NCBI GenBank assembly: GCA_030390025.1
Contig: CM059431.1
Span: 139,068,001 to 139,132,000, forward strand
Length of the DNA: 64,000 nt
Reading direction: 5' to 3'
DNA from: Squalus acanthias
Taxonomy: Eukaryota
Every line of letters starts with the position of its first letter. Position 1 is the first letter of the stretch. Under the pieces are notes generated by a model, which searched no databases, was not told the origin of the DNA, and was given only the letters and a program-made list of their open reading frames with translations. This document shows, one piece after another, positions 10,941 through 60,425 of the stretch. The position numbers were made by a program, and so were the translations under genes.

Positions 10941-13900
10941 AAAGCTAGAAGCTTTGAAGGTCCAAAGCTAGAAACAGTGAAGGTCCAAAGCTAGAAACAG
11001 TGAAGGTCGAAAGCTAGAATCAGTGAAGGTCCAAAGCTAGAAAGTGGAGTTCCAAAGCTAGAAACAGGTGAACATCCAAAAATTTAGAAAAAGTGAAGGT
11101 ACCAAAGCTAGAAACAGTGTAGGTCCAAAGCTAGAAAAGTGAATGTTCAAAGCTAGAAATGGTGGAGGTCCAAATCTACAAAACAGTGTGGTCCAAAGCT
11201 AGAAACAGTGAAGGCCCAAAGCTAAAAAGTGAGTTCCAAAGCTAGAAAGAGTGGAGATCCAAAGCTAGAAACAGTGAAGGTCCAAAGCTAGAAAACAGTG
11301 ATGGTGCAAAGCTAGAAACATGTGAAGGTCCAAAGCTAGAAAGAGTGGAGATCCAAAGCTAGAAACAGTGAAGGTCCAAAGCTGGAAACAGTGAAGTTCC
11401 AAAGCTAGAAACAGTGAAGGTCCAAAGCAAGAAACAGTGAAGGTCCAAAGCTAGAAATAGAGAAGGTCCAAAGCTAGAAACAGTGAAGGTCCAAAGCTAC
11501 AATCATTGGAGGTCCAAAGCTAGAAACAGTGAAGATCCAAAGTTAGAAAAAGTGAAGGTCCAAAGCTAGAAACAGTGTAGGTCCAAAGCTAGAAACAGTG
11601 AATGTTCAAAGCTAGAAATGGTGGAGGTCCAAAGCTAGAAACAGTGAAGGTCCAAAGCTAGAAACAGTGTAGGTCCAAAGCTAGAAACAGTGTGGGTCCA
11701 AAGCTAGAAAAAGTGAATGTTCAAAGCTAGAAACTGTGGAGGTCGAAAGCTAGAAACAGTGAAGGTCCAAAGCTAGAAGCAGTGGAGGTTCAATGCTAGA
11801 AACAGTGAAGGTCCAAAGCTAGAAACAGTGTTGGTACAAAGCTAGAAACAGTAGAGTTCCAAATCTAGAAACAGTGGAGGTCCTAATTTGGAAAATGTGG
11901 AGGTCCAAAGCTAAAGAGAGTGAAGGTCCGAAGTTAGAAACAGTGGAGGTCCAAAGCTGGAAACAATGAAGATCCAAAGCTAGAAACAGTGGAGGTCCAA
12001 AGTTAGAAACAGTGGAGGTCCAAAGCTAGAAACAGTGAAGATCCAAAGCTAGAAACAGTGAAGTTCCAAAGCTGGAAACAGTGAAGGTCCAAAGAACGAA
12101 AAAGTGGCGATCCAAAGCTAGAAACTATGAAGGTCCAAATCTAGACACTGTGGAGGTCCAAAGCTAGAGTCAGTGAAGGTACAAATCTAGAAACAGTGAA
12201 GTTCCAAAGCGAGAAAGAGTGGTGGTCCAAAGCTAGAAACAGTGGTGGTCCAAAGCGAGAAAGAGTGGAGATCCACAGCTGGAAACAGTGGAAGTCTAAA
12301 GCTAGAAACAGTGAAGTTCCAAAGCTAGAAACAGTGAAGGTCCAAAGCTAGAAACAGTGAAGGTCCAAAGCTGGAAACAGTGAAGATCCAAAGCAAGAAA
12401 TAGCGGGGGTCCAAAGCTAGGAACAGTGAAGGTCCAATGCTAGAAATAGTGAAGTTCCAATTCTAGAAATAGCGGAGGTCCAAAGCTAGAAACAGCGAAG
12501 TTCCAAAGTTCAAACTGTGGAGGTCCAAAACTAGAAAGAGTGAAGGTCCAAACCTAGAAAAAATGGAGGTCCAAAGCTAGAAACAGTGAAGGTCCAAAGC
12601 TAAAAACAGTGAAGATCCAAATCTAGAAACAGAGGTGGTCAAAAGTTGGCAACAGCGAAGGTCCAAAGCTAGAAACAGTTGAGATCCAAAGCTAGAAACA
12701 GTGGCGGTCCAAAGCTAGAAACAGTGAAGGTCCAAAGCTAGAAAGAGTGGAGGTCCAAAGCTCGAAACAGTGAAGTTCCAAAGTTAGAAACAGTGAAGGT
12801 CCAAACTAGAATCAGTGTTGGTACAAAGCTAGTAACAGTGAGGGCCAAAGCTCGAAATAGTGAAGGTCCAAAGCTGGAAACAGTGAATGTTCAAAGTTAG
12901 AAACAGTGAAGGTCCTAAGCTAGAAACAGTGAAGGTGCAAAGCTAGAAACAGTGTTGGTCCAAAGCTAGAAACAGTGGAGGTCCAAAGCTAGAAACAGTG
13001 TAGGTCCAAAGCTAGAAACAGTGAATGTTCAAAGCTAGAAATGGTGGAGGTCCAAAGCTACAAACAGTGGTGGTCCAAAGCTAGAAACAGTGAAGGCCCA
13101 AAGCTAGAAACAGTGGAGTTCCAAAGCTAGAAAGAGTGGAGATCCAAAGCTAGAAACAGTGAAGGTCCAAAGCTAGAAACAGTGATGGTGCAAAGCTAGA
13201 AACAGTGAAGGTCCAAAGCTAGAAAGAGTGGAGATGCAAAGCTAGAAACAGTGAAGGTCCAAAGCTAGAAACAGTGAAGTTCCAAAGCTAGAAACAGTGA
13301 AGGTCCAAAGCAAGAAACAGTGAAGGTCCAAAGCTAGAAACAGTGAAGGTCCAAAGCTAGAAACAGTGAAGGTCCAAAGCTACAAACAGTGGAGGTCCAA
13401 AGCTAGAAACAGTGAAGATCCAAGTTAGAAAAAGTGAAGGTCCAAAGCTAGAAACAGTGTAGGTCCAAAGCTAGAAACAGTGAATGTTCAAAGCTAGAAA
13501 TGGTGGAGGTCCAAAGCTAGAAACAGTGAAGGTCCAAAGCTAGAAACAGTGTAGGTCCAAAGCTAGAAACAGTGTTGGTCCAAAGCTAGAAAAAGTGAAT
13601 GTTCAAAGCTAGAAATGGTGGAGGTCGAAAGCTAGAAACAGTGAAGGTCCAAAGCTAGAAGCAGTGGAGGTTCAATGCTAGAAACAGTGAAGGTCCAAAG
13701 CTAGAAACAGTGTTGGTACAAAGCTAGAAACAGTAGAGTTCCAAATCTAGAAACAGTGGAGGTCCTAATTTGGAAAATGTGGAGGTCCAAAGCTAAAGGG
13801 AGTGAAGGTCCGAAGTTAGAAACAGTGGAGGTCCAAAGCTGGAAACAATGAAGATCCAAAGCTAGAAACAGTGGAGGTCCAAAGTTAGCAACAGTGGAGG

Positions 13901-16900
13901 TCCAAAGCTAGAAACAGTGAAGATCCAAAGCTAGAAACAGTGAAGGTCCAAAGAACGAAAAAGTGGCGATCCAAAGCTAGAAACTATGAAGGTCCAAATC
14001 TAGACACTGTGGAGGTCCAAAGCTAGAGTCAGTGAAGGTACAAATCTAGAAACAGTGAAGTTCCAAAGCGAGAAAGAGTGGTGTTCCAAAGCTAGAAACA
14101 GTGGTGGTCCAAAGCGAGAAAGAGTGGAGATCCATAGCTGGAAACAGTGGAAGTTTAAAGCTAGAAACAGTGAAGTTCCAAAGCTAGAAACAGTGAAGGT
14201 CCAAAGCTAGAAACAGTGAAGGTCCAAAGCTGGAAACAGTGAAGATCCAAAGCAAGAAATAGCGGGGGTCCAAAGCTAGGAACAGTGAAGGTCCAATGCT
14301 AGAAATAGTGAAGTTCCAATTCTAGAAATAGCGGAGGTCCAAAGCTAGAAACAGCGAAGTTCCAAAGTTCAAACTGTGGAGGTCCAAAACTAGAAAGAGT
14401 GAAGGTCCAAACCTAGAAAAAATGGAGGTCCAAAGCTAGAAACAGTGAAGGTCCAAAGCTAAAAACAGTGAAGATCCAAATCTAGAAACAGAGGTGGTCA
14501 AAAGTTGGCAACAGCGAAGGTCCAAAGCTAGAAACAGTTGAGATCCAAAGCTAGAAACAGTGGCGGTCCAAAGCTAGAAACAGTGAAGGTCCAAAGCTAG
14601 AAAGAGTGGAGGTCCAAAGCTCGAAACAGTGAAGTTCCAAAGTTAGAAACAGTGAAGGTCCAAAGCTAGAATCAGTGTTGGTCCAAAGCTAGTAACAGTG
14701 AGGGCCAAAGCTCGAAATAGTGAAGGTCCAAAGCTGGAAACAGTGAATGTTCAAAGTTAGAAACAGTGAAGGTCCTAAGCTAGAAACAGTGAAGGTCCAA
14801 AGCTAGAAACAGTGTTGGTCCAAAGCTAGAAACAGTGGAGGTCCAAAGCTAGAAACAGTGAAGGTCCAAAGATAGAAACAGTGAAGGTCGAAAGCTAGAA
14901 ACAGTGGAGGTCCAAAGCTAGAAACAGTGGAGGTCCAAAGCTAGAAATAGTGAAGGTCGAAAGCTAGAAACAGTGGAGGTCCAAAGCTAGAAACAGTGGA
15001 GGTCAAAAGCAAGAAACATTGGAGGTCCAAAGGTAAAAAGAGTAGAGATCCAAAGCTAAAAGCAGCGGAGGTCCAAAGCAAGATACATTGAATGTGCAAA
15101 GGTAGAGACAGTGAAGGTCCAAAGCGAGAGGCAGTGGAGTTCCAAATCTAGAAACAGTGAAAGTCCAAAGCTAGAAACAGTGAAGGTACAAAGCTAGAAA
15201 AAGTGAAGGTTCAAAGTAAGAAACAACTGAGATCCAAAGAAGAGACAGTGAAAGTCCAAAGCTAAATAGAATTGAGCTCCAAAGCTAGAAACAGTGGAAG
15301 TCCGAATCTAGAAACAGTGGAGGTCCAAAGCTAGAAACAGTGGAGGTCCAAAGCTACAAACAGTGGAGGACCAAAGCTAGATACAGTGAAGGTCCAAAAC
15401 TAGAGACAGTGAAGGTCCAAAGCTAGAAACAGTGACGGTCCAAAGCTAGAAACAGTGAAGGTCGAAAGTAAGAAACAATTGAGATCCAAAACTAGAATCT
15501 CTGATGGTCCAAAGCTAGACACAGTGAAGGTCAAAGCTAGAAACAGTGGAGGTCCGAAGCTAGAATAGTGAAGTTCCCAATTTAGAAACAGTGGAGGTCC
15601 GAAGCTAGAATAGTGAAGTTCCCAATTTAGAAACAGTGGAGGTCCAAAGCTAGAAATAGTGAAGTTCCCAATTTAGAAACAGTTGAGGTCTAAAGCTAGA
15701 AACAGTGGAGATCCAAAGCTAGACACATTGAAGGTCCAAAGCTAGAAACAATGGAGGTCCAGAGCTAGAAACAGTGGAGGTCCAAAGCTAGAAACAGTGA
15801 AGGTCCAAAGTTAGAAACAATGAAGGTCCAAAGCTAGAAACAGTGAAGGTCCAAAGCTAGAAACAGTGTTGGTCCAAAGCTAGAAACAGTAGAGGTTCAA
15901 AGCTAGAAAAAGTGGAGGTCCAAAGCTAGAAACAGTGGTGTTCCGAAGCTAGAAATAGTGAAGTTCCCAATCTAGAAACAGTGGAGGTCCAAAGCTAGAA
16001 ATAGTGAAGCTCTCAATCTAGAAACAGGGCGGTCCAAAGCTAGAAATAGTGAAGTTCCAAATCTTGACACAGTGAAGGTCAAAGCTAGAATCAGTGGAGG
16101 TACGAAGCTAGAAATAGTTAATTTCCAAATCTAGAAACAATGGAGGTCCAAAGCTAGAAATAGTGAAGTTCCCAATCTAGGAACAGTGGAGGTCAAAAGC
16201 TAGAAACAGTGGAGATCCAAAGCTAGACACATTGAAGGTCCAAAGCTAGAAACAATGGAGGTGCAAAGCTAGAAACAGTGAAGGTCCAAATCTAGAAACA
16301 GTGGATGGTCGAAAGCTAGAAACAGTGGAAGTCCAAACCTAGAAACAGTGAAGGTCCAAAGCGAGAAACAGTGAAGATACTAAGCTAGAAACATTGCAGT
16401 TCCAAAGCTAGAAACAGTAAAGGTCCAAAGCTAGAAACAGAAAAGGTCCAAAGCTAGAAACAGTGAAGGTCCAAATCCAGAAACAAAGGATGTCCAAAGC
16501 TAGCAATAGCGGTTGTCCTAAGCTAGAAACAGTGGAGGTCCAAAGCTAGAAATAGTGAAGTTCCCAATCTAGAAAGAGAGGAGGTCTAAAGCTAGTAACA
16601 GTGAAGGTCCAAAGCGAGAAACAGTGGAGGTCCAAAGCTAGAAACAGTGTAGGTCCAAAGCTAGAAACAGTGAAGGTCCAAATCCAGAAACAAAGGATGT
16701 CCAAAGCTAGAAATAGCGGTTGTCCAAAGCTAGAAACAGTGGAGTCCAAAGCTAGAAACAGTGGAGGTCCAACACTAGAAACAGTGAAGGTCCATAGTTA
16801 GAAACAGTGGAGGTCCAAAGCTAGAAACAGTGAAGGTCCAAAGCGAGAAACAGTGAAGGTCCAAAGCGAGAAACAGTGAAGATACAAAGCTCGAAACATT

Positions 16901-19160
16901 GACGTTCCAAAGCTAGAAACAGTGAAGGTCCAAACCTAGAAACAGTGGAGATCCAAAGATGGAAAAAGCGATGTTGCAAAGCGAGAAACGGGTGAGATCC
17001 AAAGCTCGAAACAGTGGAGGTCCAAAGCTAGAAACAGTGAAGGTCCAAAGCTAAAACAATGTTGGTGCAAAGCTAGAAACAGTTTTGGTGCAAAGCTAGA
17101 AACAGTGTTGGTCCAAAGCTAGAAACAGTGGTGGTCCAAAGCTAGAAACAGTGAAGGTCCAAAGCTAGAAATAGCGGAGGTCCAAAGCTAGAAACAGTGA
17201 AAGTCCAAAGTTGAAAACAGTGGAGGTCCAAAGCTAAAAAGAGTGAAGGTGCAAAAGGAGAAACAGTCATGGTCCAAAGCTAGAAACAGTGGAGGTCCAA
17301 AGCTAGAAACATTTAAAGTCCAAAGCTAGAAACAGTGGAGGTCCAAATCTAGAAACAATGAAGGTCCAACGCTAGAAACAGTGGAGATCCAAAGCTAGAA
17401 ACAGTGAACGTCCAAAACTAGTAACAATGAAGGTCGAAAGCGTGAAAGAGTGGAGCTCTAAAGCTAGAAAGAAAGGAGCTCCAAAGCTAGAAACATAGGA
17501 GGTCCAAAACTAGAAAGCGTGGAGATCCTAAGCTAGAAACAGTGAAGGTCCAAAGACTGAAACAGTGGAGATCCAAAGCTAGAGAAAGTGAAGGGCCAAA
17601 GCTAGAAACAGTGAAGGTCCAAAGCTAGAAACAGTGTAGGTCCAAAGCTATAAACAGTGTAGGTTCGAAGCTAGAAATAGTGAAGTTCCCAATCTGGAAA
17701 CAGTGGTGGTCCAAAGCTAGAAATGGTGAAGTTCCCAATCTAGAAACAGTGGAGATCCAAAGCTAGGAATAGTGACGTTCCCAATCTAGAAACTGTGGAG
17801 GTCCAAAGCTAGAAACACTGGAAGTTCCAATCTAGAAACAGTGGAAGGTCGAAAGGTAGAAACAGTGGAGTTCCGAAGCTAGAAATAGTGAAGTTCCCAA
17901 TCTTGAACATTGGCGGTCCAAAGCTGAAAGAGTGAAGTTCCCAATCTAGAAACAGTGAAGTTCCAAAGCTGGAAACAGTGAAGGTCCAAAGAACGAAACA
18001 GTGGAGATCCAAAGCTAGGAAACTGTGGAAGGTCCAAATCTAGACACAGTGGAGGTCCAAAGCTAGAGACAGTGAAGGTCCAAATCTAGAAACAGTGAAG
18101 GTCCAAAGCGAGCAAGAGTGGTGGTCCAAAGCGAGAAAGAGTGGTGGTCCAAAGCTAGAAACAGTGGTGGCCCAAAGCGAGAAAGAGTGGAGATCCAAAG
18201 ATAGAAACAGTGAAGTTCCCAATCTAGTAACAGTGGAGGTCCAAAGCTAGAAATACGAAGTTCCCAAGCTAGGAACAGTGGAGTTCCAGAGCTAGAAATA
18301 GTGAAGTTCCCAATCTAGAAACAGTGGAGGTCCAAAGCTAGAAGTAGTGAAGTTCCAAATCTAGACAGAGTGAAGGTCAAAGCAAGAAACAGTGGAGTAC
18401 CGAATCTAGAAATAGTGAAGTTCCCAATCTAGAAACAGTGGAGGTCCAAAGCTAGAAATAGTGAAGTTCCCAATCTAGAAAGAGAGGAGGTCTAAAGCTA
18501 GTAACAGTGAAGGTCCAAAGCTAGAAACAGTGGAGGTCCAAAGCTAGAAACAGTGTAGGTCCAAAGCTAGAAACAGTGAAGGTCCAAATCCAGAAACAAA
18601 GGATGTCCAAAGCTAGAAATAGCGGTTGTCCAAAGCTAGAAACAGTGGAGTCAAAAGCTAGAAACAGTGGAGGTCCAACACTAAAACAGTGAAGGTCCAT
18701 AGTTAGAAACAGTGGAGGTCCAAAGCTAGAAACAGTGAAGGTCCAAAGCGAGAAACAGTGAAGGTCCAAAGCGAGAAACAGTGAAGATACAAAGCTAGAA
18801 ACATTGACGTTCCAAAGCTAGAAACAGTAAAGGTCCAAAGCTAGAAACAGAAAAGGTGCAAAGCTAGAAACAGTGAAGGTCCAAATCCAGAAACAAAGGA
18901 TGTCCAAAGCTAGAAATAGCGGTTGTCCAAAGCTAGAAACAGTGGAGTCCAAAGCTAGAAACAGTGGAGGTCCAACACTAGAAACAGTGAAGGTCCATAG
19001 CTAGAAACAGTGGAGGTCCAAAGCTAGAAACAGTGAAGGTCCAAAGCGAGAAACAGTGAAGATCCAAAGCAGAAACATTGACGTTCCAAAGCTAGAAACA
19101 GTGAAGGTCCAAACCTAGAAACAGTGGAGATCCAAAGCTAGAAAAAGCGATGGTGCAAAA
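10941..19160. repeat. 23-bp satellite array (aaagctagaaacagtg[a/g]aggtcc), about 8.2 kb, with higher-order blocks
   Basis: The monomer recurs every 23 nt (10941, 10964, ...). Diagnostic variants repeat at about 1.86-1.9 kb offsets. Confidence 0.98.
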
Positions 19161-30881: not shown

Positions 30882-31870
30882 TCATCTTTTAACAAATTGG
30901 AGTATTAGTTTTCAGGGAGATTTTAGCACATTCTTCAACTCTTCTCTGAATTTCCTCTGGTTAGCTGCATAAATACATGTGTTTGTGCAAGAACTCAAAT
31001 ACATGAGCAGGTACCCGCTTTCGGTGGCGATATATCCAGGATTTGAGTCATCGCCTTGGTAATAAACGGTGCTTGACAGCCTGGTGGCTGCAAAACTCCC
31101 GACAGCTGTCAGCCACGAGAGTATAAACCTGACCGATATAGTGAAGAGTAAAATAATGGATTTCCATCGTTTCTCCATCTCTGTATCGCTCTGATTCTCA
31201 CTGCTGTGACCCCGGAGTCCCCTGCGGGCTCTACTGGCCACTAAAATGCGTCTGACGGTCAAAGAATTAAACAGGGCCATGAAAGCGAAGGGGAGCAATG
31301 GGACTGATAGAGTCTGGATCCAGCTGTATACTGACCATGCGGGTAATGTAAAAACGTCCACAGTTGTCCGACAACCCCACTGCACATTGTTAATTATTTG
31401 TTCAGCTTCATATTAAAACAAGATAGGGAGACCCTTTAAATAGGTCAGGACAGAGACCGTTACTATAACCGCGGTGGCGGTTCGCTCGATGCAATACTTC
31501 GCTTTAAACCCCTGACAGCAGATCGCCACAAATCGGTCAAATGTGAAGGAGATTGTAAACCACACCGACATATCCAGGTTGGCAAAGGTTAGATATAGAA
31601 GGAACATACAAACGGCAGTGTAGGACAGGAATGAATATGGATAGTTATAATCAAATACACTATTACGTTTATGATCATGACCAGTAGATCTGCTGTTGCC
31701 ATGGCCAACATGTATACAGAGATACACTTGGAAAGCTCGCAGTTTCCTCGGGAGAGAATCACAATTGTCAATACGTTTGTTGTAAGAGAGAGAGAAGAGG
31801 AAAGTTACCAGGGACACACACGGAAATGGCCAGCGGTGTAGCTACCTCGGGTGATATACAAGGGAACCAT
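30882..31870 (-). pseudogene. gpr139-like: GPR139-like class A GPCR pseudogene
   Basis: NVLTIVILSRGNCELSKCISVYMLAMATADLL, SVWFTISFTFDRFVAICC and SCTNTCIYAANQRKFREELKN are paralogous to 45609-46495. Lesions: frameshift at about 31650, TAA at 31413-31415, acceptor AG>AA at 31780-31781. Confidence 0.88.
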
Positions 31871-32992: not shown

Positions 32993-33092
32993 CAAAATAA
33001 AAACAGAAAATGCTGGAGATACTCAGCAGGCCAGGCAGCATCTGTGAAGAGAGAAACAGACTTAATGTTTCTGGTCGATGACCTTTCGTCAG
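32993..33092 (-). mobile_element. Single arm of the hammerhead-bearing element
   Basis: The minus strand reads CTGACGA-aaggtcatcgacca-GAAAC-attaagtct-GTTTC...tgctgcctggcctgctgagtatctccagcattttctgttttt. Confidence 0.75.
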
Positions 33093-44100: not shown

Positions 44101-46495
44101 ATCGCAGCCCCATTGCACATTCTCCTCGCCCAGTATCCATTGTACATTCACCCAATCGCAGCACACATTGTACATTCTCCTCGCCCAGTATCCGTTGTAC
44201 ATTTACCCAATCGCAGCCCACATTGCGCATTCTCCTCGCCCAGTATCCATTGTACATTCACCCAATCGCAGCACACATTGTACATTCTCCTCGCCCAATA
44301 TCCATTGTACATTCACCCAATCGCAGCCCACATTGTACATTCTCCTCGCCCAGTATCTATTGTACATTCACCCAATCGCTGCCCCATTGCACATTCTCCC
44401 CGCCCAGTCTCCATTGAACATTTACCCAATCGCAGCCCCATTGCACATTCTCCCCGCCCAGTAGCCATAGTACATTCACCCAATCGCAGCCCCATTGCAA
44501 ATTCTCCCCGCCCAGTATCCGCTGCACATTCTCCCCGTTCAGTCTCCATTGCACATTCTCCCTGCCCAGTCTCCATTGCTCATTCTCCCCGCCCAGTCTC
44601 CATTGCACATTCACCCCGCCCAGTCTCCATTGCTCATTCACCCCGCCCAGTCTCCATTACACATTGACACTGCCCAGTCTCCATTGCCCATTCTCCCTGC
44701 CCAGTCTCCATTGCTCATTCACCCCGCCCAGTCTCCATTGCTCATTCACCCCGCCCAGTCTCCATTACACATTGACACTGCCCAGTCTCCATTGCCGATT
44801 CTCCCTCTCCAGTCTCCATTGCACTTTCACCCCGCCCAGTCTCCATTGCCCATTCTCCCCTTCCAGTCTCCATTGCCCATTCTCCCCTTCCAGTCTCCAT
44901 TGCTCATTCACCCCTTCCAGTCTCCATTGCTCATTCACCCCGCCCTGTCTCCATTGCCCATTCACCCCGCCCAGTCTCCATTGCCCATTCATCCCTTCCA
45001 GTCTCCATTGCTCATTCACCCCGCCCAGTCTCCATTGCCCATTCACCCTGCCCAGTCGCCATTGCTCATTCTCCCCGCGCAGTCTCCATTGCCCAGTCTC
45101 CATTGCACATTCTCACCTTCCAATCTCCATTGCACATTCACCCCGCCCAGTCTCCATTGCCCATTCTCCACGCCCAGTCTCCATTGCACATTTACCCCGC
45201 CCAGTCTCCATTGTTCATTCACCCCGCCCAGTCTCCATTACACATTCGCCCTGCCCAGTCTCCTTGCTCTGACTCAGACTTTATCCATTTTGGTCCAGAT
45301 TATGTGTTTAGCTGTGGTCGCTGTGCCAGTGCACGTTTCTTCTCTTAAATCAACGCTTCATCTTTACTGACCAGATTGACTTGTTTTTTCTTGCTCCAGG
45401 GTGGCTGGTGCTTTGTTAGTTTCATCAATACTACTGTCGTTGAATTTATTATTGCCTTTCATTATTATTATAAACGCTTGTCTACATCCAGCAAAGGAAT
45501 TCACTTCAATCGATGCAACAACAATCCAGAAATTTCATTCAAAATCCTTTCGAACGAATGTTGTTTGACAGTCTGGTGAAATATTTATAGTCTTTTTCTC
45601 TATTACAGTTAACTTTGTTGCGATTGTGGTCCTGTCCCGAGGAAATTGCGGTCTCTCGAAATGTGTGACTCTCTACCTGGTGGCCATGGCAGCGGCGGAC
45701 CTCCTGGTTGTTGTCACCGATGTCATATTAAGGTGCATTGCTGATATTTATTTCCCTGTTTCATTCTTGACCATTAACCTCATGTGCCGTCTCAACGCTG
45801 TCCTGATGTTTGCAGCCACAGAAACTTCAGTCTGGTTCACGGTGGTTTTCACCTTCGATCGATTTGTGGCCATTTGTTGTCAGAAGCTGAGAGCTAAATA
45901 TTGCACCGAAAAAACGGCGGCTATTGTTATCGCGGTGGTGAGTGTGCTGAGCTGTTTGCAAAGCATTCCCTGGTACTTTGTATTTGACCCTGAGTTTATA
46001 ATGGACAATGTACCCCGGGGTTGTGTCATGAAACCCACCTTTTTTACTGCACCTGCGTGGGGAGCATTTGAAATACTTCACCTTGTTTTAACCCCTTGTA
46101 TACCATTTATTCTGATTTTCCTGTTCAATGCTCTCACCGCCAGGCATATTTTGGCGGCCAGTAGGGTCCGCAAGGGACTCCGGGGCCGCAGCAATGGAGA
46201 GAATCACAAGGATCCAGAGATACAGAACCGAAAGAAATCCATCATTTTACTCTTCAGTATATCGGGCACTTTCATACTCTTATGGAGCACAGAAGTTGTA
46301 TATTTCATCTCCCTGCATGTCACAAACGCCCAGTTCTATACAGCCAGTGTCCTTGAATCAGCCGGAATCATGCTTCAGCTGCTGAGTACCTGCACCAACG
46401 CGTGTATTTATGGCGTGACACAGAGTAAGTTCAGAGAGGAGCTGAAGAACGCAGCGAAATACTCCCTGAATCTGGTTTCTAAATTATTTCAATAA
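35113..46495 (+). CDS. gpr139-like: GPR139-like class A GPCR, two exons (35113-35179, 45609-46495), 317 aa
   Basis: Exon 1 MGVVLNEITTIYYPILAAVGVP-G|gtaagc splices in phase 1 to tacag|TT AAC (VNFVAIVVLSRGNCGLSK). The product has seven hydrophobic segments, ADLL, TFDRFVAIC, NACIY and SKFREEL, with no internal stops. AATAAA at 46651. Confidence 0.88.
36230..37465 (-). mobile_element. Degraded L2-type LINE fragment (intronic)
   Basis: Reverse complement of the family at 48480-50385; purine-rich on the + strand. Confidence 0.7.
37470..40300 (-). mobile_element. Long CR1/L2-group LINE ORF2 remnant (endonuclease to RT), intronic
   Basis: DFNVHQQEWL, LLDLVLTN, KQDKSKPAKYLPISL, QFGFRQ and GVPQGRVLG motifs. 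Confidence 0.9.
40760..41630 (+). mobile_element. CR1 3' fragment with a triplicated 51-bp unit at its 5' end
   Basis: aagggaagtgtgaagtgatacatttagac...gaggcaata x3 (40760-40913), then CR1 3' sequence with an (attctatg)n tail. Confidence 0.8.
41740..43100 (-). mobile_element. Degraded CR1-group LINE 3' fragment
   Basis: ANMVLG, LYQTMVLHHLEF and FWSP motifs. Confidence 0.7.
43250..45265. repeat. 27-bp C-rich minisatellite (cattctccccgcccagtctccattgca) with a 54-bp A/B dimer sub-array
   Basis: The ORFs show a 9-aa period (IAHSPRPVS). Units alternate with the cattcacccaatcgcagcccc variant at about 43870-44500. Confidence 0.95.
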
Positions 46496-47139
46496 TACAT
46501 ACAGCTGTAGACTTTCCATATACTGCCCGTTGGCGTTTAAAGTCAGAAACCAAATGAGTTCACTGAAGGAACTGATATTCCTGCAAAACATTGAATAACA
46601 TTGTGAGCACTGGACATAAATTAACTATACCAATACGCACGGTGTTGTGAAATAAAGCGTGATTTAATTTAATGTTAAATGTTTTGCTGTAATTAAACCT
46701 GATATAAAATTAGATGAAAGGCTCCTTTGAGTGTTTGCTGTCACAGACGCCGCCCGTTGGGGTGGACTGAGGGTGAGCTGTCAGTGTCAGGCAGCGTCCT
46801 GTCCATTGGAACATGTCTTTGGATCACAACAGACTAATAATGAACCAATAAAAGGACCATGTGTAACCGGTAAAATATTAACGTGGTTTCAAACTCCAGC
46901 GGGGAGTTCAGGAGATCACTTAGTCTCAGACCTGCTGTGTAGCAATGTTTACTCACTGCAGGAAGTTTAATGAGACATGAGGCTGGCGCTGGTCACTCGG
47001 GTCCATAAAGAAACGCTCTGATAGTCTCTGATTGATATTATCATCCCACCACAAGGAATACCTTCAGTATAACAGCCGATCTGCAGGCTTTCATTTGCTT
47101 GTCTGATATAAAATTTGGGCTAAGATTGTTTTCTATATC

Positions 47140-48207
47140 ATTTTCTGAATGGCAGGCAGTAACAAGTGGGGTACCACAGGGATCTGTCCTGGGTCCCCAG
47201 CTGTTCACAATTTACATTAATGACCTGGATCAGGGAGTCGGATGCAGCATTTCCAAATTTGCAGACGACACTAAACTAGGAGGGGGGGTGGGCTCAGAGG
47301 AGGAGACCAGGAAGCTCCAGAGCGATTTGGACAGACTGGGTGATTGGGCGGATAAATGGCAGATGCACTATAATGTGGACAAGTGCGAAGTTATCCACCT
47401 TGGGTGCAGGAACGGGAGGGCAAATTATTATTTCAATGGCAATAAATTGGGAGAGGGGGAAGTACAGAGAGACCTGGGTGTTCTTGTACACCAGTCACTG
47501 AAGGCGAGCATGCAGGTGCAACAGGCGATCAAGAAGGCAAACGGTATGCTGGCCTTCATAGCAAAAGGGTTGGAATACAGGAACAGGGATACCTTGCTGC
47601 AGCTGTACAGGGCACTGGTGAGACCACACCTCGAGTACTGTGTACAGTTTTGGTCGCCTCATCTGAGGAAAGATGTTCTTGCCATGGAGGGGGTGCAGCG
47701 GCGATTCACCAGGCTGATACCAGGAATGGCGGGATTGACCTATGAGGAGAGACTATGTAGTTTAGGGATGTACACACTGGAGTTTAGAAGATTGAGAGGG
47801 GACCTCATAGAAGTGTATAAAATTCTGACAGGGCTAGACAGACTAGATGCAGAAGGGATGTTTCCCTTGGCGGGTGAGAACAGAACTAGAGGACATAATT
47901 TAAGGATAAGGGCTAAACCATTTAGGACAGAAATGAGGGGGCATTTCTTCACTCAGAGGGTGGTGAACCTGTGGAACTCATTGCCACAGAGGGCAGTGTA
48001 CGCCAGCTCATTAAATATATTTAAGAGGGAATTAGATATATTTCTACAGGCAAAAGGGGTTAAGGGTTACGGAGAGAAGGCGGGGACGGGATACTGAATT
48101 GGAGGATCAGCCATGATCTCATTAAATGGCGGAGCAGGCTCGAAGGGCCGGATGGCCTACTCCTGCTCCTATCTTCTATGTATCTATGTATCTATGTATC
48201 TATGTAT
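47140..48207 (+). mobile_element. Young 5'-truncated CR1 insertion with an open RT C-terminal frame
   Basis: Uninterrupted frame from SGVPQGSVLGP through FADDTK to WNSLP, stop at 48097, complete 3' UTR and a (tatctatg)n tail. Confidence 0.95.
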
Positions 48208-52370: not shown

Positions 52371-53382
52371 TAGAGATATTGCTTAGATTTACACGCCAGT
52401 GAATCTGAAGTCAAATTAACGCATCAAAGGCCAAATTTTGGCCCAGATACTAAACATCTCCCAATAGCTAGTTAGACTCTCACCTCGGCAAAATCATCGA
52501 TTGAAGTGATTCTCAGTAAAGCTCCTCACATTTCCAATCATTGTTGAAGTTTCCCGTTTCTGGCCTTCGACACTGGGGATTTGGCCGCAACAGATCTTCT
52601 CTATGAACCTAGCGAACTTTCTCCAGTCCCAGTTAGTGTAGTGATGATTCGACTTATCTCTCTCCACCTTCCTGGGATACTGCTTAATCAAATAAACGTT
52701 TAAGAAAAACGAGATTCAAATTAATTAGAAAATATGTTACAGGAAAACAATAGGACTATTTTTTGACTATAAATATATTTAATTTGAAAATATTTACAAT
52801 TTTTTGAAGTATTTACTTTACTGTTAAATAGTTCTTTCGTTTGCCCCTATAGGCGCTAAATTCACACACAGGAAAAATTCAGTTGGTTGCGCCTCCGTTA
52901 GCGCCTTAAGAGGGCGCTAATGGGGCGCAAAGCCGCTAGCGCTCGGGCGCAGCGATGTTTGCGCTGCTCGGGAACTTAACTAGACATTGTGCGGCGGCGC
53001 TAAACTTTACCGCCGCGACCACCTGCGCGCGCAGATTGTGACGTCATTCCATGGTGCAACGCCCTTGTGGCGCCCCGGAGCGGAAATTGAGTGGCGCCCC
53101 CTGCCTTACCGCCTGGCGCATCCAACGACCGGAAGACTGGAACGCTATCAATCGCTGTGGGGCTGGGGGGGGGGGGGCGCTATTTAAAGGGGGCCTCTTC
53201 CTGTCTTTTTCTGTGGTTGACATTTTTGCACCACTTGTTCTGAGAGAGAGAGAGAGATTCGGAGAGAGAGAAAGAGAGACTTCTGCATTGTGTCAACGCT
53301 TTGTGAGGTAGTTTTGCCTACTGATCCTAACTTCGCTGGTACTTTGGTTGCTGTCCTTCATAACTTTGCTTGCAAAGAGACT

Positions 53383-54544
53383 ATGGGGGCTGCACTGAAT
53401 GGGGGCGTCGTCCTGCTCCAGCTGAATCGGAGGACACAGAGACGCAGAGAGAGAGTGGCAATGATGGCCAGATGGAGGAAGGCCAACAGGCGTCTGTACA
53501 GGAGAGCTTACCCTCCCAGGGTATACCGTGAACAGCTCTCCGACATTCATATGTCTGAGGAGCTGTGTTTGCGAAGGCTGCGATTCAGCAAGGAGGTGGT
53601 CACTGAGCTCTGCCACCTGCTGCAGCCAGATCTGCAGCCTCAACTGAGGTCCAGGACGTCTCTGTCGGTGGCAATGAAGGTCACAGTGGCTCTCAACTTC
53701 TATGCTACTGGCTCATTTCAAGCTGCTGCTGGGGACTTCGCCAATATCTCCCAGTTCGCGGTGCATTGATGCATCCGGCAGGTCACAAATTCCTTCTTTA
53801 AAAGGAGACGAGAGTTCATCTCTTTCCCCATGACCCTAGACACATCAGCGTGACCGCGCTCTGGGCTTGGCGAGGATAGCGGGCTTCCCCATGGTGCAGG
53901 GCGCCATTGACTGCATGTATGTGGCTTTGCGTGCTCCACATGAGAATGCCGAGGATTTCCGGAACAGAAAGAGGTTCCATTCCTTCAATGTTCAGTTGGT
54001 CTGTGACCACAGACCGCTGATACTCGCTGTCAATGCCCACTATCCTGGCAGCTGCCACGATGCTTTCATCCTGCGCCAGACTACTGTGGCAGAACTTTTC
54101 GAGGCACCGCATCAGCCAGTTGGTTGGCTTCTCGGGGACAAGGGGTATCCATTGAGCACCTGGCTGATGACACCGCTCCGTACGCCCAACACCCCTGCTG
54201 AGCTGCGGTACAATGAGAGCCATCAAGCTACCAGGAACATCATTGAGCGCACAATCGGCGTGCTGAAGCAACGGTTCCGCTGTCTCGACCATTCTGGAGG
54301 AGCCCTGCCGTACTCGCCTGAGCGAGTATCCAACTTCGTAGTTGTGTGCTGCATGTTGCATAACATGGCAATCGTCAGGACACAGCCAATGCCACCAGGC
54401 CTTGGAGCATCACCAGAGAAGGAGGAGGAAGAGGAGGAAGAGGACGAGGAGGATGATCATCAGCAGCACCAAGGCGGGAGGGTGGCCCACAATGGTGAAA
54501 CTGCAAGGGCCGTCCGTCAACGGCTGATAGCAAGCCGCTTCTAG
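53383..54544 (+). pseudogene. Harbinger (HARBI1-type) DDE transposase, disrupted
   Basis: RRLRFSK, ALNFYATGSFQ, GAIDC, GSCHDAFI, LLGDKGY, IERTIGVLKQRFRCL and CCMLHN motifs plus an acidic tail. Lesions: TGA at 53767-53769 and a +1 frameshift at about 53840. Confidence 0.93.
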
Positions 54545-56513
54545 GGCCCCTGCTGTGGAAATGGCTTCTGCCATTGCGAATAACATCAATGAACCCAGCA
54601 CGCAACCCCTAAGCCGGCCAAGGCACCAATGATTCCAAACACCAAACATGTATATTTTGAATACAAAAACTTATTTATTTTACAAACTCTGTGTGTGTCA
54701 TTTCCTCATGACAAACTCATAGAAATAAACACAAAAAAACAGTCATTAACATAACTGGTTCTCACAACCTGGAGATAATGTCCAAAACACTAGACAAAAG
54801 TTGGACCACGAACCTCGGCCTTTAATAAAAAAATGACCAGCATTTTGTCACACCTCCTACTTTTTGCCCTTCGAGGGTGATCTCCTTCCCTTGCGCACTT
54901 CCCCCCTTCTAACCCTACTGCTCCTCCGTAATGGGACCTCAGTGGCTGCAGCAAGGCTGGTGGAAGGCTGCTGATTGTCAGACCCTGACACTGCAGATGC
55001 CCCTGAAGGACGGCCTCGACCAGTTCTGGGCCTGGAGGGCCCGGCTGCAGACTGCACCAACTCTGCATGGGCGGCAGCAGTCAGTCCTACAGGCGGTGGC
55101 AAGTGCAGTGGAGAAGTGACAGTGTTGGCAGCAGGAATGCTGTCATCGTGAGAGAGGACAGCAACTCCCTGCTCGCCCGACACACTGGCACTCCCACGGG
55201 GCAGCACTTCAGCATCCGGAGCAATCTGCTGGAGCACAGATTGCTGGCCTGCTGCGGCACGGTGAGAGCCCCGGGGACATGTGAACGAACCATCGAGGTT
55301 GGCAGCTGTCAGTGCTCGCGTGGCCTCAATCTGAGTCTGCATGAGAGCAGTCAGAGATGGGATCACGGCAGTCAGTGACTGAATTGCAGCACTAAGCTTT
55401 AGTGTGGCATCCGCCTGTGCTACAGCGAAGTGCTCCACACTCCTTGCCAGTGACTCAATGCATTCGGGCACCCTTCCCACTGCACCCATGAGCTCAGTGT
55501 GCATGCCCACCGCCTGTGTGTTCATTTCTGCGATCAGCCGCTCCTCCTCTGCGTCCATTGCAGTAGGAGTCGCTGGCATACTCTCCCTCTGGGGAGAAGG
55601 CCCCCGTTCTTCCCTACCCCCATGGCGTTGCTGCAGCCCGCTGGGTCCTGGAGCTTCACCCTCATCAGACCCTTCCCCCCTGCTCCCCTCCAGGGAAGGC
55701 GTGTTCCCAGTGTGGGCATGGGCTTCCTCGGGAGAGGGTGGCACTGATGCTCCGGCTTCCTCTTCCTCCTCGGCTGCAGCTTCACTCCCACTGGCAGCTT
55801 CAGGGCCCGTCTCCTCAGCTGGTGAATCACCATCTGAAAGCAGGGAGGTACAAGAGTGGCTTTAGCGTGAGGACAGGGTGGCAGTAAGGGAGGAATAAGT
55901 GCAGCGAGTTAGCAAGTTGGATTGAAAGTGTCAAAGGCTGGTGTTGTGAGGGACAAGTGGAAGGACAGAGGACAAAAAGGTGATGACCTTACCATTGCTG
56001 TCCAGAACGGGGTCGGCGTCTCCAGTGGCGACGGGACCGATCACTCAGCTTGCCACAATCCTGTGGACGCGCTCCTCAAGATCGCTGAGGGGTGCAGCTG
56101 AGGCCGCCCTCCACCTGTCCGTTGCTGCTGTCTCCTATTATGCGCCAGCTTGGCCTGCAAGAAAAAGGACAGCATCTGAGTAAATATACAGCCATGGTCT
56201 TGCCTGATGTGCCTCCCATAGGTGAATAGCCCTTACTGTATGCAGCCATGGTCTTGCCTGATGTGCCTCCCATAGGTTAATAGCGCTTACTGTATGCAAA
56301 GTGTGGAATGTGTGTGTGTGTTTCATGAAAGGGCCATAGGTGTTGGATGAGTGTTGTGCATTGGGGTTTTAAGACCCTCTGGCCATAGAGTGAGGTTGAG
56401 ATGGAGGGATGGAGAGGTATTGAGAAAAAGCCAGTCACCCTGACGACCTGAGTGAGGTCGTTGAACTTTTTGCGGCATTGAACATGGGTCCTGGGCACCA
56501 TGCTCCTGGAGGA

Positions 56514-56606
56514 AATAACAACAGAAAACGCTGGAAAAACTCAGCAGGCCAGGCAGCATCCGTGGAGAGAGAAAGAGAGTTAACGTTTCAGGTCGAAGAC
56601 CTTTCA
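56514..56606 (-). mobile_element. 5'-truncated hammerhead-element fragment inserted in the Myb exon, 10-bp TSD
   Basis: TCCTGGAGGA flanks it at 56504-56513 and 56607-56616. The sequence matches the arms at 518-737 and 32993-33092. Confidence 0.85.
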
Positions 56607-56694
56607 TCCTGGAGGAGATGCTCTGAGCCACCTCCCTCCACACTCTTCTGTACTCGCGTGACAAAGGCCTCCTGCCACTCTCAGGGAAGAGTAT

Positions 56695-57590
56695 GGGGTA
56701 GAAATTAGGTCGCGCCCCATTTGGGGCGCAAATATCGTCCGGACGCAAATATTAGCGCCTGGCGCTAATTATCGGCACTGACGGGAAACTTCACTTTTAC
56801 CGCCCCGGGAGGTGAGTGGAGCGCTAAAGCAGGCGCTGCACACCTCTCTTAAGGCGCAAAGGCCGAGCAGTGAGGCGCTAACTCGGAGCGCTGGCGAAGC
56901 TCATGTAATGTCAGTCAGCAATGGAACACACACACAATGGCACGGGCCAGTTCTTAAAGGGGATGGTTAATCTTGCTTTCCATCCACATCCTGTTCATTG
57001 CTGCCTTGAATCTCGGCCTGGAGAGACTTGCACATCAAATGTGCTCGAAAGAACAATGGAGAGCACCAGGCAAAGAGCTCAGAGTGCAGCTCCCACGGTC
57101 TCTGCTAAATCGATACAAGGAATGGCAAATCAAAATGAACCTGCAAAGTGCTGCTCAGTACCCAAAACTCCTTCACACAACGTTGAATCTCTCCAGAAGT
57201 CTTTCCCTCTCTCTCTCAGAATGCGTAGTTCAAAAATGCCACCAACAATAAAAGACAGGAAGAGGCCCCCTTTAAATAGCGCCCCCCCCCCCAGCCCCAC
57301 AGCGATTGATAGCGTTCCAGTCTTCTGGTCGTTGGAAGCGCCAGGCGGTAAGGCAGGGGGCGCCACTCAATTTCCGCTACGCGGCGCCCCAAGGGCGTTG
57401 CACCATGGAATGACGTCACAATCTGCGCGCGCAGGTGGTCGCAGCGGTAAGTTTTAGCGCCGCCGCACAATCTCAAGTTAAGTTCTCGAGCGGCGCAAAC
57501 ATCGCTGCGCCCGGGCGTTAGCAGCTTTGCGCCCCATTAGCGCCCTCTTAAGGCGCTAACGGGTGGCGCAACCAAGTGAATTTTTACCCC
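56695..57590 (-). mobile_element. Non-autonomous Harbinger deletion derivative (896 bp) nested in reverse orientation
   Basis: TIRs GGGGTAGAAATT / AATTTTTACCCC, TAT TSD at 56692-56694 and 57591-57593. Its halves are inverted homologues of the host element's right and left ends. Confidence 0.9.
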
Positions 57591-58039
57591 TATAGATCTT
57601 CTGCGCTCCACCGCGCCAACCTGAGCATCGAAGGCCCGCTCGGTGAAGCGCTGAGCTCGTTCTCTCACCCTCTCCATCCTTGGCAGCAAAATGGATTCAC
57701 AGGTCTCTCCAGGCCGAGATTCAAGGCTGCAATGAGCAGGGTGTGGCTGGGGAGCAAGTTGCCCCCCCCCCCCTTTAAGAACTGGCCGGCGCCAGTGTGT
57801 CTGTGTTCCCTCGCTAACTGGCAGCACCTGCGCTGCGCTCGCGTGCTGAGTTAGCGCCTCACTGCTCGGCCTTTGCGCCTTAAGACAGGTGTGCAGCGCC
57901 GGATTTAGCGCTCCACTCACCTCCAGGGGCGTTAAAAGTGAAGTTTCCAGTCAGTGGCGATAATTAGCTCCAGGCGCTAATATTTGCGTCCAGACGATAT
58001 TTGCGCCCCAAACGGGGCGCAACCTAATTTCTCCTCCTT

Positions 58040-58665
58040 AGAGTTATGCAGCACAGAAAGACGCCCTTCGGCCCATCGTGTCGGCACCGGCCATCAAGCC
58101 CTGTCAATTCTAATCCAATTTTCCAGCACTTGGTCCATAGCCTTGTATGCTATGGAGTTTCAAGTGTTCATCTAAATGCTTCTTGAATGTTGTGAGGGTT
58201 CTTGCCTCTACCACCCTTTCAGGCAGTGAGTTCCAGATTCCAACCACCCTCTGTGTGAAAATGTTTTTCCTCAAATCCCCTCTATACCTCCTGCCCCTCA
58301 TTTGTAACTGTGCACCTTGGTTATTGCCCCCTCTACTAATTCCTTTCTATCTACACTATCTGTGCCTCTCATAATTTTGTACACCTCAATCAGGTCCCCC
58401 CTCAGCCTTTTCTGCTCAAAGGAAAACAACTCCAGCCTGTCCAGTCTATCTTCATAGCTGAAGCGCTCCAGCCCAGGTAACATCCTGGTGAATCTCCTCT
58501 GCACCCTCTCCAATGCAATCACTTCCCTCCTGTAGTGTGACGACGAGAACTGCGCACAGTATTCCAGCAGTGGCCTAACTAGCGTTTCGTACAGCTCCAT
58601 CATAACCTCCCTGCTCTTATATTCTATGCCTCGGCTAATGAAGGCAAGTATCCCATATGCCTTTC
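58040..58665 (-). mobile_element. CR1 3' end fragment
   Basis: LVRPLLEYCAQF, LERVQRRFTRM and FTQRVVGIWNSLP motifs. Confidence 0.92.
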
Positions 58666-59239
58666 TTCTGCCCACTCTAGCTCCGCCACAGTGACATCCC
58701 AGGGGCGGAAACCTATCTTCAGATGACATCAAAATGGAGCCAGGAGCCAATCACACAGCAGCCAGGAACAATGTCACAAATCAGCCAGAGATCCGCCCAG
58801 TCGAGATGTCACAGTGTCACATGATCAGGCTCTGCTTCTGGTGCGCAGTCTCACTGGGCATGAACGCAGGTTGTACAATTAGTCCTGTCTCCGAACCCGC
58901 CCCCATCTACTGAGATTCGAGGCAGGGAGTACAGACTCCCAAAATTACCCCTTATGCATTCTCCATCCCATAATCCAAATGCAAGATCCCACTATTTAAT
59001 AGACCCCCTGTCCATCATTTGCTTTGTAAATTCGAAAGTTCCCCTTCTCTCTATATCAGGCAGATTGACTCCGTACTGCTTTGGCAGTGACAGGCTGTTT
59101 GAGATAATAGTGCTGAGATGAGGCAGGGATATTACAGCCACCATCTCTGCTCTAAAAATAGTCTACTCGCTTCAACAATTGAAGGGATAAGTGAGGCATT
59201 CACCAGTGGTATCAGGTGGAAGAATCATCGGGTTAGGAA

Positions 59240-59800
59240 CAGCATGGGTAAGACAGAGTGTAAAGTTCACTCAACACTGTACTATCCCAGGGCAGGTACG
59301 GCATGGGTTATTTACAGAGTAAAGCTCTATCTATAATGTGCAATCAAACCCTCCAAGGGCAGATACAACAAGGGTTTGTTCCAGAGTAAATTTCCATCTG
59401 CACTCTCCCCTCAAACACTCCCATGGCAGGTACAGGTCAGGTTAGCTACAGCGTAATGTTCCCTCTACACTTTCCAATCAAATACTCCCAGGGCAGGTAA
59501 AGAAAGGGTTAGATGCAGAGTAAAGCTCCCTCTACACTGGACATTCAAACACTCCCAGGGCAGGTACAGGACAGGTTAGCAACAGCGTAATGCTCCCTCT
59601 ACACCTTCCCATCAAATACTCCCAGGGCAGGTAAAGAAAGGGTGAGATACAGAGTAAAGCTCCCTCTACACTGATCTTTCAAACACTCCCAAGGCAGGTA
59701 CAGCATGGATTAGCTACAGATTAAAGCTTCCTTTCCACTGTCCCGCAAAACACAATCAAGGCAGTTGCGGCAGGGGTTAAATATAGTGTAAATCTCGCTG
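59240..59800. repeat. 67-bp tandem repeat (partly a 134-bp dimer)
   Basis: actcccagggcagg...gggttagatacagagtaaagctccctctacact at 59484, 59551 and 59618. Confidence 0.88.
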
Positions 59801-60139
59801 AATTTTGGTTGATCAAGCAGAGTCAACTCAGCATGTGCTCAATGCAGCGTACAGCTCCTCTGACACTATCCAATGAACCTCACCAACTCAGATTCAGCAT
59901 GGTATGGTTACATGATACAATTCCGGGTGGACTGCATAGATTCGAGTTCTCTCTCTCCACATTCATGAGATCCTGCTGACTCCAATAATCTATCAATATA
60001 AAATGATTCATAATAATTTCAGAAACAGTATTCGGAATACAATGGGACTATTTTTGTGATTATTTTATATTTAATAGGATTATATTTCTAATTAATTTGG
60101 TTGAATTACTTACTTTAATATTAAATTGCACTTTTCTAT

Positions 60140-60425
60140 CCTTGCCCCTATTTATAGGGACTATACTCATTCACAATATCTGCTGCGAAATCCAGCTCCG
60201 CCCACAGTAACATACCACTGATGGGGCTTAACCAGTGGGGGGACCTGTCTCCAGGTGACATCACAAAGGAGCCAATAGCTAATCACACCGCAGTCAGTAA
60301 CAATGTCTCAAAGCAGCAGGAGCTCCGCCCAGTGGAGGTGTCACAAGGACACATAACCTTGCTCTGCTCCTGGTGTGCAGTCTCACTGGGGATGAACACA
60401 TGTTCTACATTTAATCCTGCGTCCT
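60140..60425 (-). promoter_or_regulatory. Candidate Pol II promoter (TATA box plus GC, CCAAT and CRE-like boxes)
   Basis: TATAAATA on the minus strand at about 60149-60156, with ccgccc boxes, agccaat and tgacatca upstream. A paralogous copy lies at 58665-58895. Confidence 0.45.

Follow-up and report, generated by a model that had tools for sequence, protein, structure and literature searches.

A degraded two-gene PIF/Harbinger-type transposon of Squalus acanthias with a sister element nested in its Myb/SANT gene

Results

The DNA described in this report is a 64-kb window of the Squalus acanthias genome (positions 139,068,001 to 139,132,000 of contig CM059431.1), and all coordinates follow the numbering of that whole window. 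It consists of repeat-rich animal DNA with fragments of long interspersed nuclear elements (LINEs), tandem arrays and rhodopsin-type receptor genes. The interval within which we studied the element, 52871-58037, is a PIF/Harbinger-type transposon with two convergent genes: a DDE transposase on the forward strand and a three-exon Myb/SANT gene on the reverse strand. The element measures about 4.1 kb once its insertions are subtracted. In its ancestral layout, a terminal inverted repeat (TIR) at either end enclosed the transposase gene, followed by the convergent Myb/SANT gene with its three exons. Between the two stop codons lies a spacer (54545-54856, no strand), in which the sequence offers putative poly(A)-signal-like hexamers at 54724 (forward) and 54674 (reverse). 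An earlier interpretation made from the letters alone, hereafter the sequence-only reading, had recognized at this place a Harbinger of two genes, the Myb/SANT partner being spliced. Pfam, the homologues and a spliced intron 2 joint show that it was right, and its left boundary of 52870 is corrected here to 52871, because host homology reaches 52870. An Rfam scan over the element returned a single match, which fell below the cut-off and was taken as chance.

The transposase gene

The transposase gene (53383-54544, forward strand) is a single-exon Harbinger DDE pseudogene. Two reading frames span it, and in tblastn comparisons homologues align to both its N-terminal and its C-terminal half. The C-terminal half matches Pfam DDE_Tnp_4 (PF13359), as the sequence-only reading had proposed to check, with an E value of 2.2e-38 over the whole model (positions 1-158). 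The complete set of catalytic motifs claimed in that reading is also present: in the aligned columns of the homologues, the catalytic triad (D 53909, D 54137, E 54245) is intact. Of the conserved residues close to the first catalytic D, an F and an H are both replaced.

For comparison with other copies, contigs from four public sequencing runs (X1, X8, X12 and X15; three organism labels) were aligned to the element. The transposase frame is broken exactly twice, by a stop codon (53767-69) and by a single extra base (53843). The stop (53769) is missing from 93-100% of the covering contig depth and the extra base from 98-100%, in all four runs. The sequence-only reading had noted these two evident lesions and had overlooked the substitutions that accompany them. 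Sixteen transposase substitutions were inspected, from 40 of 290 differing places; 14 are missense, one is a stop and one is silent. That 15 of the 16 alter or stop the protein agrees with decay without selection.

The Myb/SANT gene

The second gene lies on the reverse strand, with its ATG at 57677 and its first exon in three pieces. The first piece (57591-57677) runs from this ATG to a nested element, whose right target duplication occupies 57591-93, and aligns to the N-terminus of P0121, a sawshark protein that bears PF13873. The second (56617-56694), bounded by the TAT of the left target duplication (56692-94), is 48% identical to residues 30-56 of P0121. The third (56439-56513) corresponds to the last Myb/SANT helix and matched the PF13873 proteins P0121 and P0122. 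Exon 1 stays in frame across both of the insertions that divide it. From its GT..AG ends and the colinearity with P0121, intron 1 most probably occupies 56155-56438; it contains a 54-bp tandem duplication (56185-56292). Exon 2 (55993-56154) is followed by a 159-bp GT..AG intron 2 (55834-55992) and by exon 3 (54857-55833), which is open, has a low-complexity tail and is 27% identical to the tail of P0121 over 225 columns (E 5e-17). The Myb domain and the tail are colinear with P0121 through all three exons.

With X put in at the breaks, the read-through of exon 1 reaches 78 bits on a small profile of PF13873-bearing relatives, and exons 1 and 2 together score 115 bits. The profile was built from five repeats of two PF13873 proteins; 193 of 200 shuffled controls were reported, the best of them at 6.2 bits. 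One exon-1 piece had served to retrieve the profile proteins, but the other two pieces align as well, as do exons 2 and 3, all of them in the proper order. The claim that exon 1 returns to frame when two insertions are removed is upheld by this score and by the existence of insertion-free copies (see below). The Myb_DNA-bind_5 comparison suggested in the sequence-only reading had a mixed outcome: the exon-1 pieces, scanned singly against Pfam, gave one weak match in four (the third piece, Myb_DNA-bind_4, E 0.035), whereas the rebuilt exon is recognized, indirectly, by the relatives' profile.

An exhaustive search with a 30-residue exon-1 piece returned seven matches, two of which are Pristiophorus proteins with Myb_DNA-bind_5 domains (P0121 and P0122); the other five were dropped as unrelated repetitive sequences. 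Word-based homologue searches gave no match for exon 3 among 8000 scored candidates and none for a 43-residue exon-1 frame, for which one candidate was scored. A protein-cluster atlas, which furnishes leads only, placed the exon-1 piece with Myb clusters at 0.76-0.80 and, with low recognition, exon 3 with an unnamed chordate cluster at 0.91 and PF13873 clusters at 0.77-0.78.

Intron 2 is spliced out (joint 55833-55993) in three contigs of X8 and X12, which carry two organism labels; the joint was not seen in X1 or X15. The layout of the convergent gene agrees with the three exons drawn in the sequence-only reading, although three further lesions had escaped notice there. Exon 2 lacks one base near 56092: its length is 162 bp where 3n+1 is required, the frame changes in the alignment to P0121, and the extra base is present in all four runs, at 33-55% of the depth in three of them. 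The same exon has a stop at 56045-47 that is missing from 99-100% of the covering depth in other copies. Further, the intron-1 donor is changed at its +5 position (56434), where almost all contigs covering it in three of the four runs have another base.

Two insertions in Myb exon 1

The larger insertion (56695-57590) is a complete non-autonomous Harbinger element of 896 bp that lies on the reverse strand, inverted with respect to its host element; the sequence-only reading had made no mention of its Harbinger nature. Its two 12-bp TIRs are intact and match at 11 of 12 positions, and it is flanked on both sides by a 3-bp duplication, TAT, between a G and an A. The empty site is exact (joint 56691-57591, with three letters that fit either side) in 7, 2 and 2 contigs of X1, X8 and X12, respectively. 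Its ends are 83% identical to the outer right end and 91% identical to the outer left end, and it retains a relic Myb start at 57056. The nested element is derived from a sister subfamily and not from the copy that surrounds it. Its inverted orientation accounts for the long inverted repeats at the locus. [quoted passage not shown]

The smaller insertion (56514-56616, no strand) is a 103-bp stretch from an abundant repeat that is unrelated to the element; 10 bp of target sequence are duplicated around it (56504-13 and 56607-16). Its empty site (joint 56503-56607) was found in six contigs of X1, one of the four runs. Three more copies, 80-88% identical, lie in the window at 637-737, 1970-2067 and 32995-33090. 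These carry a CTGA(C/T)GA...GAAAC core that is clipped in the inserted copy. We take this core to resemble the minimal hammerhead ribozymes of Penelope-like elements; the Rfam scan of the element gave no match to them.

Other junctions in X1 and X8 join an element end to the transposase gene (57563-53579) and nested-element ends head to tail (57590-56695), and the joints in these runs include internal deletions, such as 56826-57247 and 55336-55825. Further nested and deleted derivatives therefore exist.

Termini and the empty site

At the left, a remnant of the 12-bp TIR occupies 52871-52879 (forward strand). As judged from the extent of host homology and from comparison with the inner end, about three outer bases and the target duplication are lost; only two of the first five bases remain, and no matching target duplication adjoins them. 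The left subterminal region and transposase 5' leader (52871-53345, forward) match the inner left end at 91% identity across 400 bp and contain repeated GGCGCTAA-like motifs. The right subterminal region (57678-58037, reverse) ends in a TIR (58026-58037) that differs from the inner TIR at two positions and is followed by TTA. Thus, both subterminal regions reported in the sequence-only reading were found, but the left TIR tip and target duplication are gone.

The GGCGCTAA-like motifs recur near positions 31 and 58 at all four ends, outer and inner. Within the element the exact 8-mer GGCGCTAA has 11 occurrences, against a single one in the remaining 58.8 kb of the window. We regard these motifs as candidate Myb sites. 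An occurrence at 52852 was rejected as part of the element; it lies in host-homologous sequence.

The right TIR adjoins the tail of a LINE 3' fragment (58038-58663, reverse strand), which matches other LINE fragments of the window and which we take to be of CR1 type. A paralogous host unit 7.3 kb downstream (59939-60424, forward), 72% and 81% identical on the two sides, serves as an empty site for the element and the LINE together: host homology stops at 52870 and resumes at 58664 (joins 52870 to 60175 and 58664 to 60179), and the element and the reversed LINE fragment, the latter missing from the paralogous unit, lie between. The host sequences themselves (52646-52870 plus 58664-58892, compared with 59939-60424) constitute a diverged duplication of a unit that looks non-coding.

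Other copies and protein relatives

Part of the element stretch is present in 20 of the 24 listed sequencing runs, seven of which contain at least half of its words. In the four runs that were aligned, 52268, 2980, 1960 and 178 contigs matched, and all 30 bins of the element were covered in every run; runs of organisms D-F (share 0.43) form no part of this evidence. We looked for a rebuilt exon 1 devoid of Myb/SANT signal and for termini private to this copy and encountered neither: the signal is present, and the public contigs confirm that the termini are common to many copies, as the sequence-only reading had expected. Long pieces over the autonomous part differ at 23 of 1788 bases in X15 (six pieces) and at 37 of 1921 in X12 (seven pieces), so that the family is little diverged. 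Because these pieces, from two other organism labels, diverge by only 1-2%, a family consensus should be recoverable. Sharks are thought to mutate slowly; low divergence in the family therefore need not mean recent activity.

Seventy-seven of the 120 listed transposase homologues bear shark or ray names, and 48 of these are from Pristiophorus japonicus. The nearest relatives among those listed show 74% identity over 78% of the C-terminal half and 64% over all of it. In a 121-row tree the transposase falls within a 56-row, all-elasmobranch clade with Pristiophorus, Heptranchias, Narcine and Mobula (support 99), which suggests that the family has long been resident in elasmobranchs.

The same comparison contains several small Harbinger transposase-like clades that are common to distant sharks and rays, have short branches and in some cases have the catalytic E replaced by K, R or Q (P0019/P0131-P0133/P0029, P0048/P0052, P0026/P0034/P0035 and P0009/P0010). 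A single 90% cluster that spans Carcharodon and two Scyliorhinus species contains P0019, which has K in place of this residue. These clades look like elasmobranch-specific domesticated genes. Among the Myb relatives, P0121 and P0122 of Pristiophorus carry the Harbinger Myb exons in two or three tandem copies ahead of a single tail, possibly an exon-duplicated domesticated gene or a chimeric annotation.

Discussion

The locus is, with high probability, one dead copy from an autonomous elasmobranch family of PIF/Harbinger type that has many copies. It contains at least eight lesions that are disabling or probably so: two in the transposase gene, five in the Myb/SANT gene and one at the left tip. 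An autonomous, active element would have both genes and both TIR tips intact, and the studied copy does not. By analogy with Harbinger3_DR and Ping/Pong, the Myb protein of the family would bind the repeated subterminal motifs and recruit the DDE transposase to the 12-bp TIRs; the transposase would cut and paste the element, duplicating 3 bp of A/T-rich target. Once inserted, this copy would have decayed without selection. A non-autonomous sister element, presumably mobilized in trans by related proteins, may then have landed in Myb exon 1, to be followed by the short unrelated repeat and by stops, frameshifts and the loss of the left tip. The copy as it stands would make neither protein and, probably having no usable left end, most likely could not be excised.

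Several facts weigh against this account. No contig in the four runs spans the element, and hence no intact autonomous copy was seen. The contigs pool subfamilies at 85% likeness, and their depth cannot be equated with copy number. The transposase tree was made by a quick method, without bootstrap. That X8 and X12 are RNA is a guess ("probable RNA"), and a spliced intron-1 joint is not among the best 15 of 74 joints. The extra base of exon 2 makes up only about 1% of the depth in X1. Finally, the transposase seems well preserved for a decayed copy, in that only two of 54 strongly conserved columns deviate, the median for homologues in the C-terminal half being three. The deviating column at 53869 is specific to this copy, as confirmed against the other copies; the second, a Y for H beside the first D, is not one of the 40 of 290 places.

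This preservation, together with the intact DDE triad, the open exon 3 and the divergence of only 1-2% from the family, is what favors the proposal of the sequence-only reading that a few edits would restore an autonomous element. We consider such a nearly intact element very unlikely. The proposal fails on the eight or more structural lesions, the left TIR tip among them, and on the many missense changes relative to the majority of other copies, which make up 14 of the 16 inspected transposase sites and recur among the Myb sites; the substituted F and H near the first catalytic D also stand against it. A consensus of many copies would be the sound route to restoration, as it was for Harbinger3_DR.

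It is extremely improbable that the two genes are a domesticated transposase/Myb pair of the HARBI1/NAIF1 kind that later became a pseudogene. Related elasmobranch proteins do look domesticated (P0019, with its cross-species 90% cluster and its altered catalytic residue, is an example), but the paralogous empty site already largely refutes domestication at this locus, and TIRs, subterminal motifs, many diverging copies and an intact DDE triad argue in the same direction. The single-copy state, lack of TIRs and conserved position of a domesticated pair were not found here. Nor, very probably, are the lesions or the nested arrangement artefacts of assembly in a repeat-rich region. The lesions are known from the assembled locus sequence alone, long inverted repeats can mislead assemblers, and a 200-N gap is present elsewhere in the window. 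However, each of the two insertions is flanked by an exact target duplication and has an exact empty site in other copies, and the inner and outer ends differ by 9-17%, hence they are not collapsed duplicates.

We return to the reading of the locus as a dead family member and to its place among known systems. Its DDE_Tnp_4-type transposase with catalytic triad, Myb/SANT second gene, TIRs and 3-bp duplication are those of the PIF/Harbinger-like (PHIS) superfamily. Like NuwaI, NuwaII and the PIF/Harbinger groups described in PMC4482050, it has two reading frames (DDE and Myb/SANT), a 3-bp duplication and a 12-bp TIR starting with GGG, and its length of ~4.1 kb compares with averages of 4.1-4.7 kb. 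In contrast, the TAT of the nested element, the only two-sided case (n=1), matches none of TWA, CWG, TNA and ANT (PMC4482050). It corresponds neither to the CWG of NuwaI nor to the TNA, between C and G, of NuwaII. On its one side, the outer right flank (TTA-G) is compatible with TWA or NuwaII, and one further flank starts with ATA. Further, the hosts of NuwaI and NuwaII listed in the available part of PMC4482050 include no elasmobranch. The family thus satisfies the definition of the superfamily but, by a duplication known from one two-sided case, fits no group cleanly.

The vertebrate system most like it in description is that of zebrafish Harbinger3_DR and Harbinger3N_DR (Sinzelle et al. 2008, via PMC2836001 and PMC9392472), which likewise has a DDE transposase, a separate Myb-like gene, autonomous and deletion-derived members and a recoverable consensus. 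The shark element differs in belonging to an elasmobranch clade and in its TAT duplication, a comparison made by description only. In such systems both proteins are required, and binding to the ends as well as to the transposase falls to the Myb-like protein; deletion derivatives are mobilized in trans, also by sister elements (PMC2836001 and PMC9392472). Rice Ping/Pong with the MITE mPing offers a similar picture of an autonomous two-gene element, a derivative moved in trans and cross-mobilization between sisters (PMC2836001), but in an active plant system, whereas the shark derivative sits inside the Myb gene of its relative. HARBI1/NAIF1 and MSANTD1-4 are of the same protein classes but are single-copy host genes (PMC9392472); with a mobile-element fossil such as the shark locus, orthology is not expected. 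The remark in the sequence-only reading that such pairs gave rise to HARBI1/NAIF1 is accordingly correct background (PMC9392472) that says nothing on this copy. The nearest relatives are proteins of Pristiophorus japonicus and Heptranchias perlo named "putative nuclease HARBI1" or uncharacterized Myb proteins, of which P0121 matches all Myb exons. Unlike a described transposon, these are automatic gene annotations; in P0001, the nearest of them, K replaces the catalytic E, unlike in the shark element, and P0121 has three Myb repeats.

A 2022 survey detected no Harbinger in the elephant shark, proposed a loss in cartilaginous fishes and called for other species to be examined (PMC9179366). The family at this locus, shared by sharks and rays, indicates that such a loss is not general to cartilaginous fishes. 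In the portions available, the shark genome papers mention the superfamily in repeat tables only, its elements undescribed (PMC8455134 and PMC12498223). We found no description of an elasmobranch Harbinger family and no targeting of LINE tails in the literature, although subscription papers, Repbase reports or supplements may hold one. Thus, this is a known kind of element that is little described in sharks and rays. The locus supplies the full anatomy of such a family, from the termini through the two genes and their introns to a non-autonomous partner, and the low divergence of the family makes it a good start for a second vertebrate Harbinger system beside Harbinger3_DR. In itself the locus is an ordinary fossil, and only a confirmed LINE-tail preference or current activity would lift it above that.

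An intriguing but doubtful possibility concerns that LINE tail. The outer right end adjoins the first bases of the reversed LINE tail, and in a contig labeled organism C (loose end at 57590) a left element end is followed by the same LINE-tail position in the opposite orientation; this is an independent event. The tail in question occurs only twice in the window, and the LINE-tail junctions number two, from a selected 24 of 1630 loose ends. The junction in X1 between an element end and the transposase gene is the second case behind a targeting of the family's own relatives. Members of the superfamily are known to prefer certain targets (PMC2836001). One may therefore imagine, tentatively, a lineage with intact, transcribed and spliced autonomous copies and a non-canonical TAT/ATA duplication that homes on the LINE-tail position and on its own relatives. 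If this were true, a DNA transposon would be sheltering in the tail of another transposon as a safe haven. Against such homing, the LINE could have inserted second, at the Harbinger end, and the empty-site junction also shows ATA.

Other features of the window

Two rhodopsin-type seven-transmembrane (7TM) receptor genes are present. One (45569-46495, forward) has an open frame of 308 amino acids (Pfam 7tm_1, E 3e-21), and the other (30912-31841, reverse) is interrupted by a stop. An 8.2-kb array (10941-19159) of about 358 copies of a 23-bp unit, strongly A-skewed, directly follows a 200-N gap. Finally, the 3' part of a LINE reverse transcriptase is open for 353 amino acids at 47036-48100 (forward), with an 8-bp tandem tail at 48175-48207.

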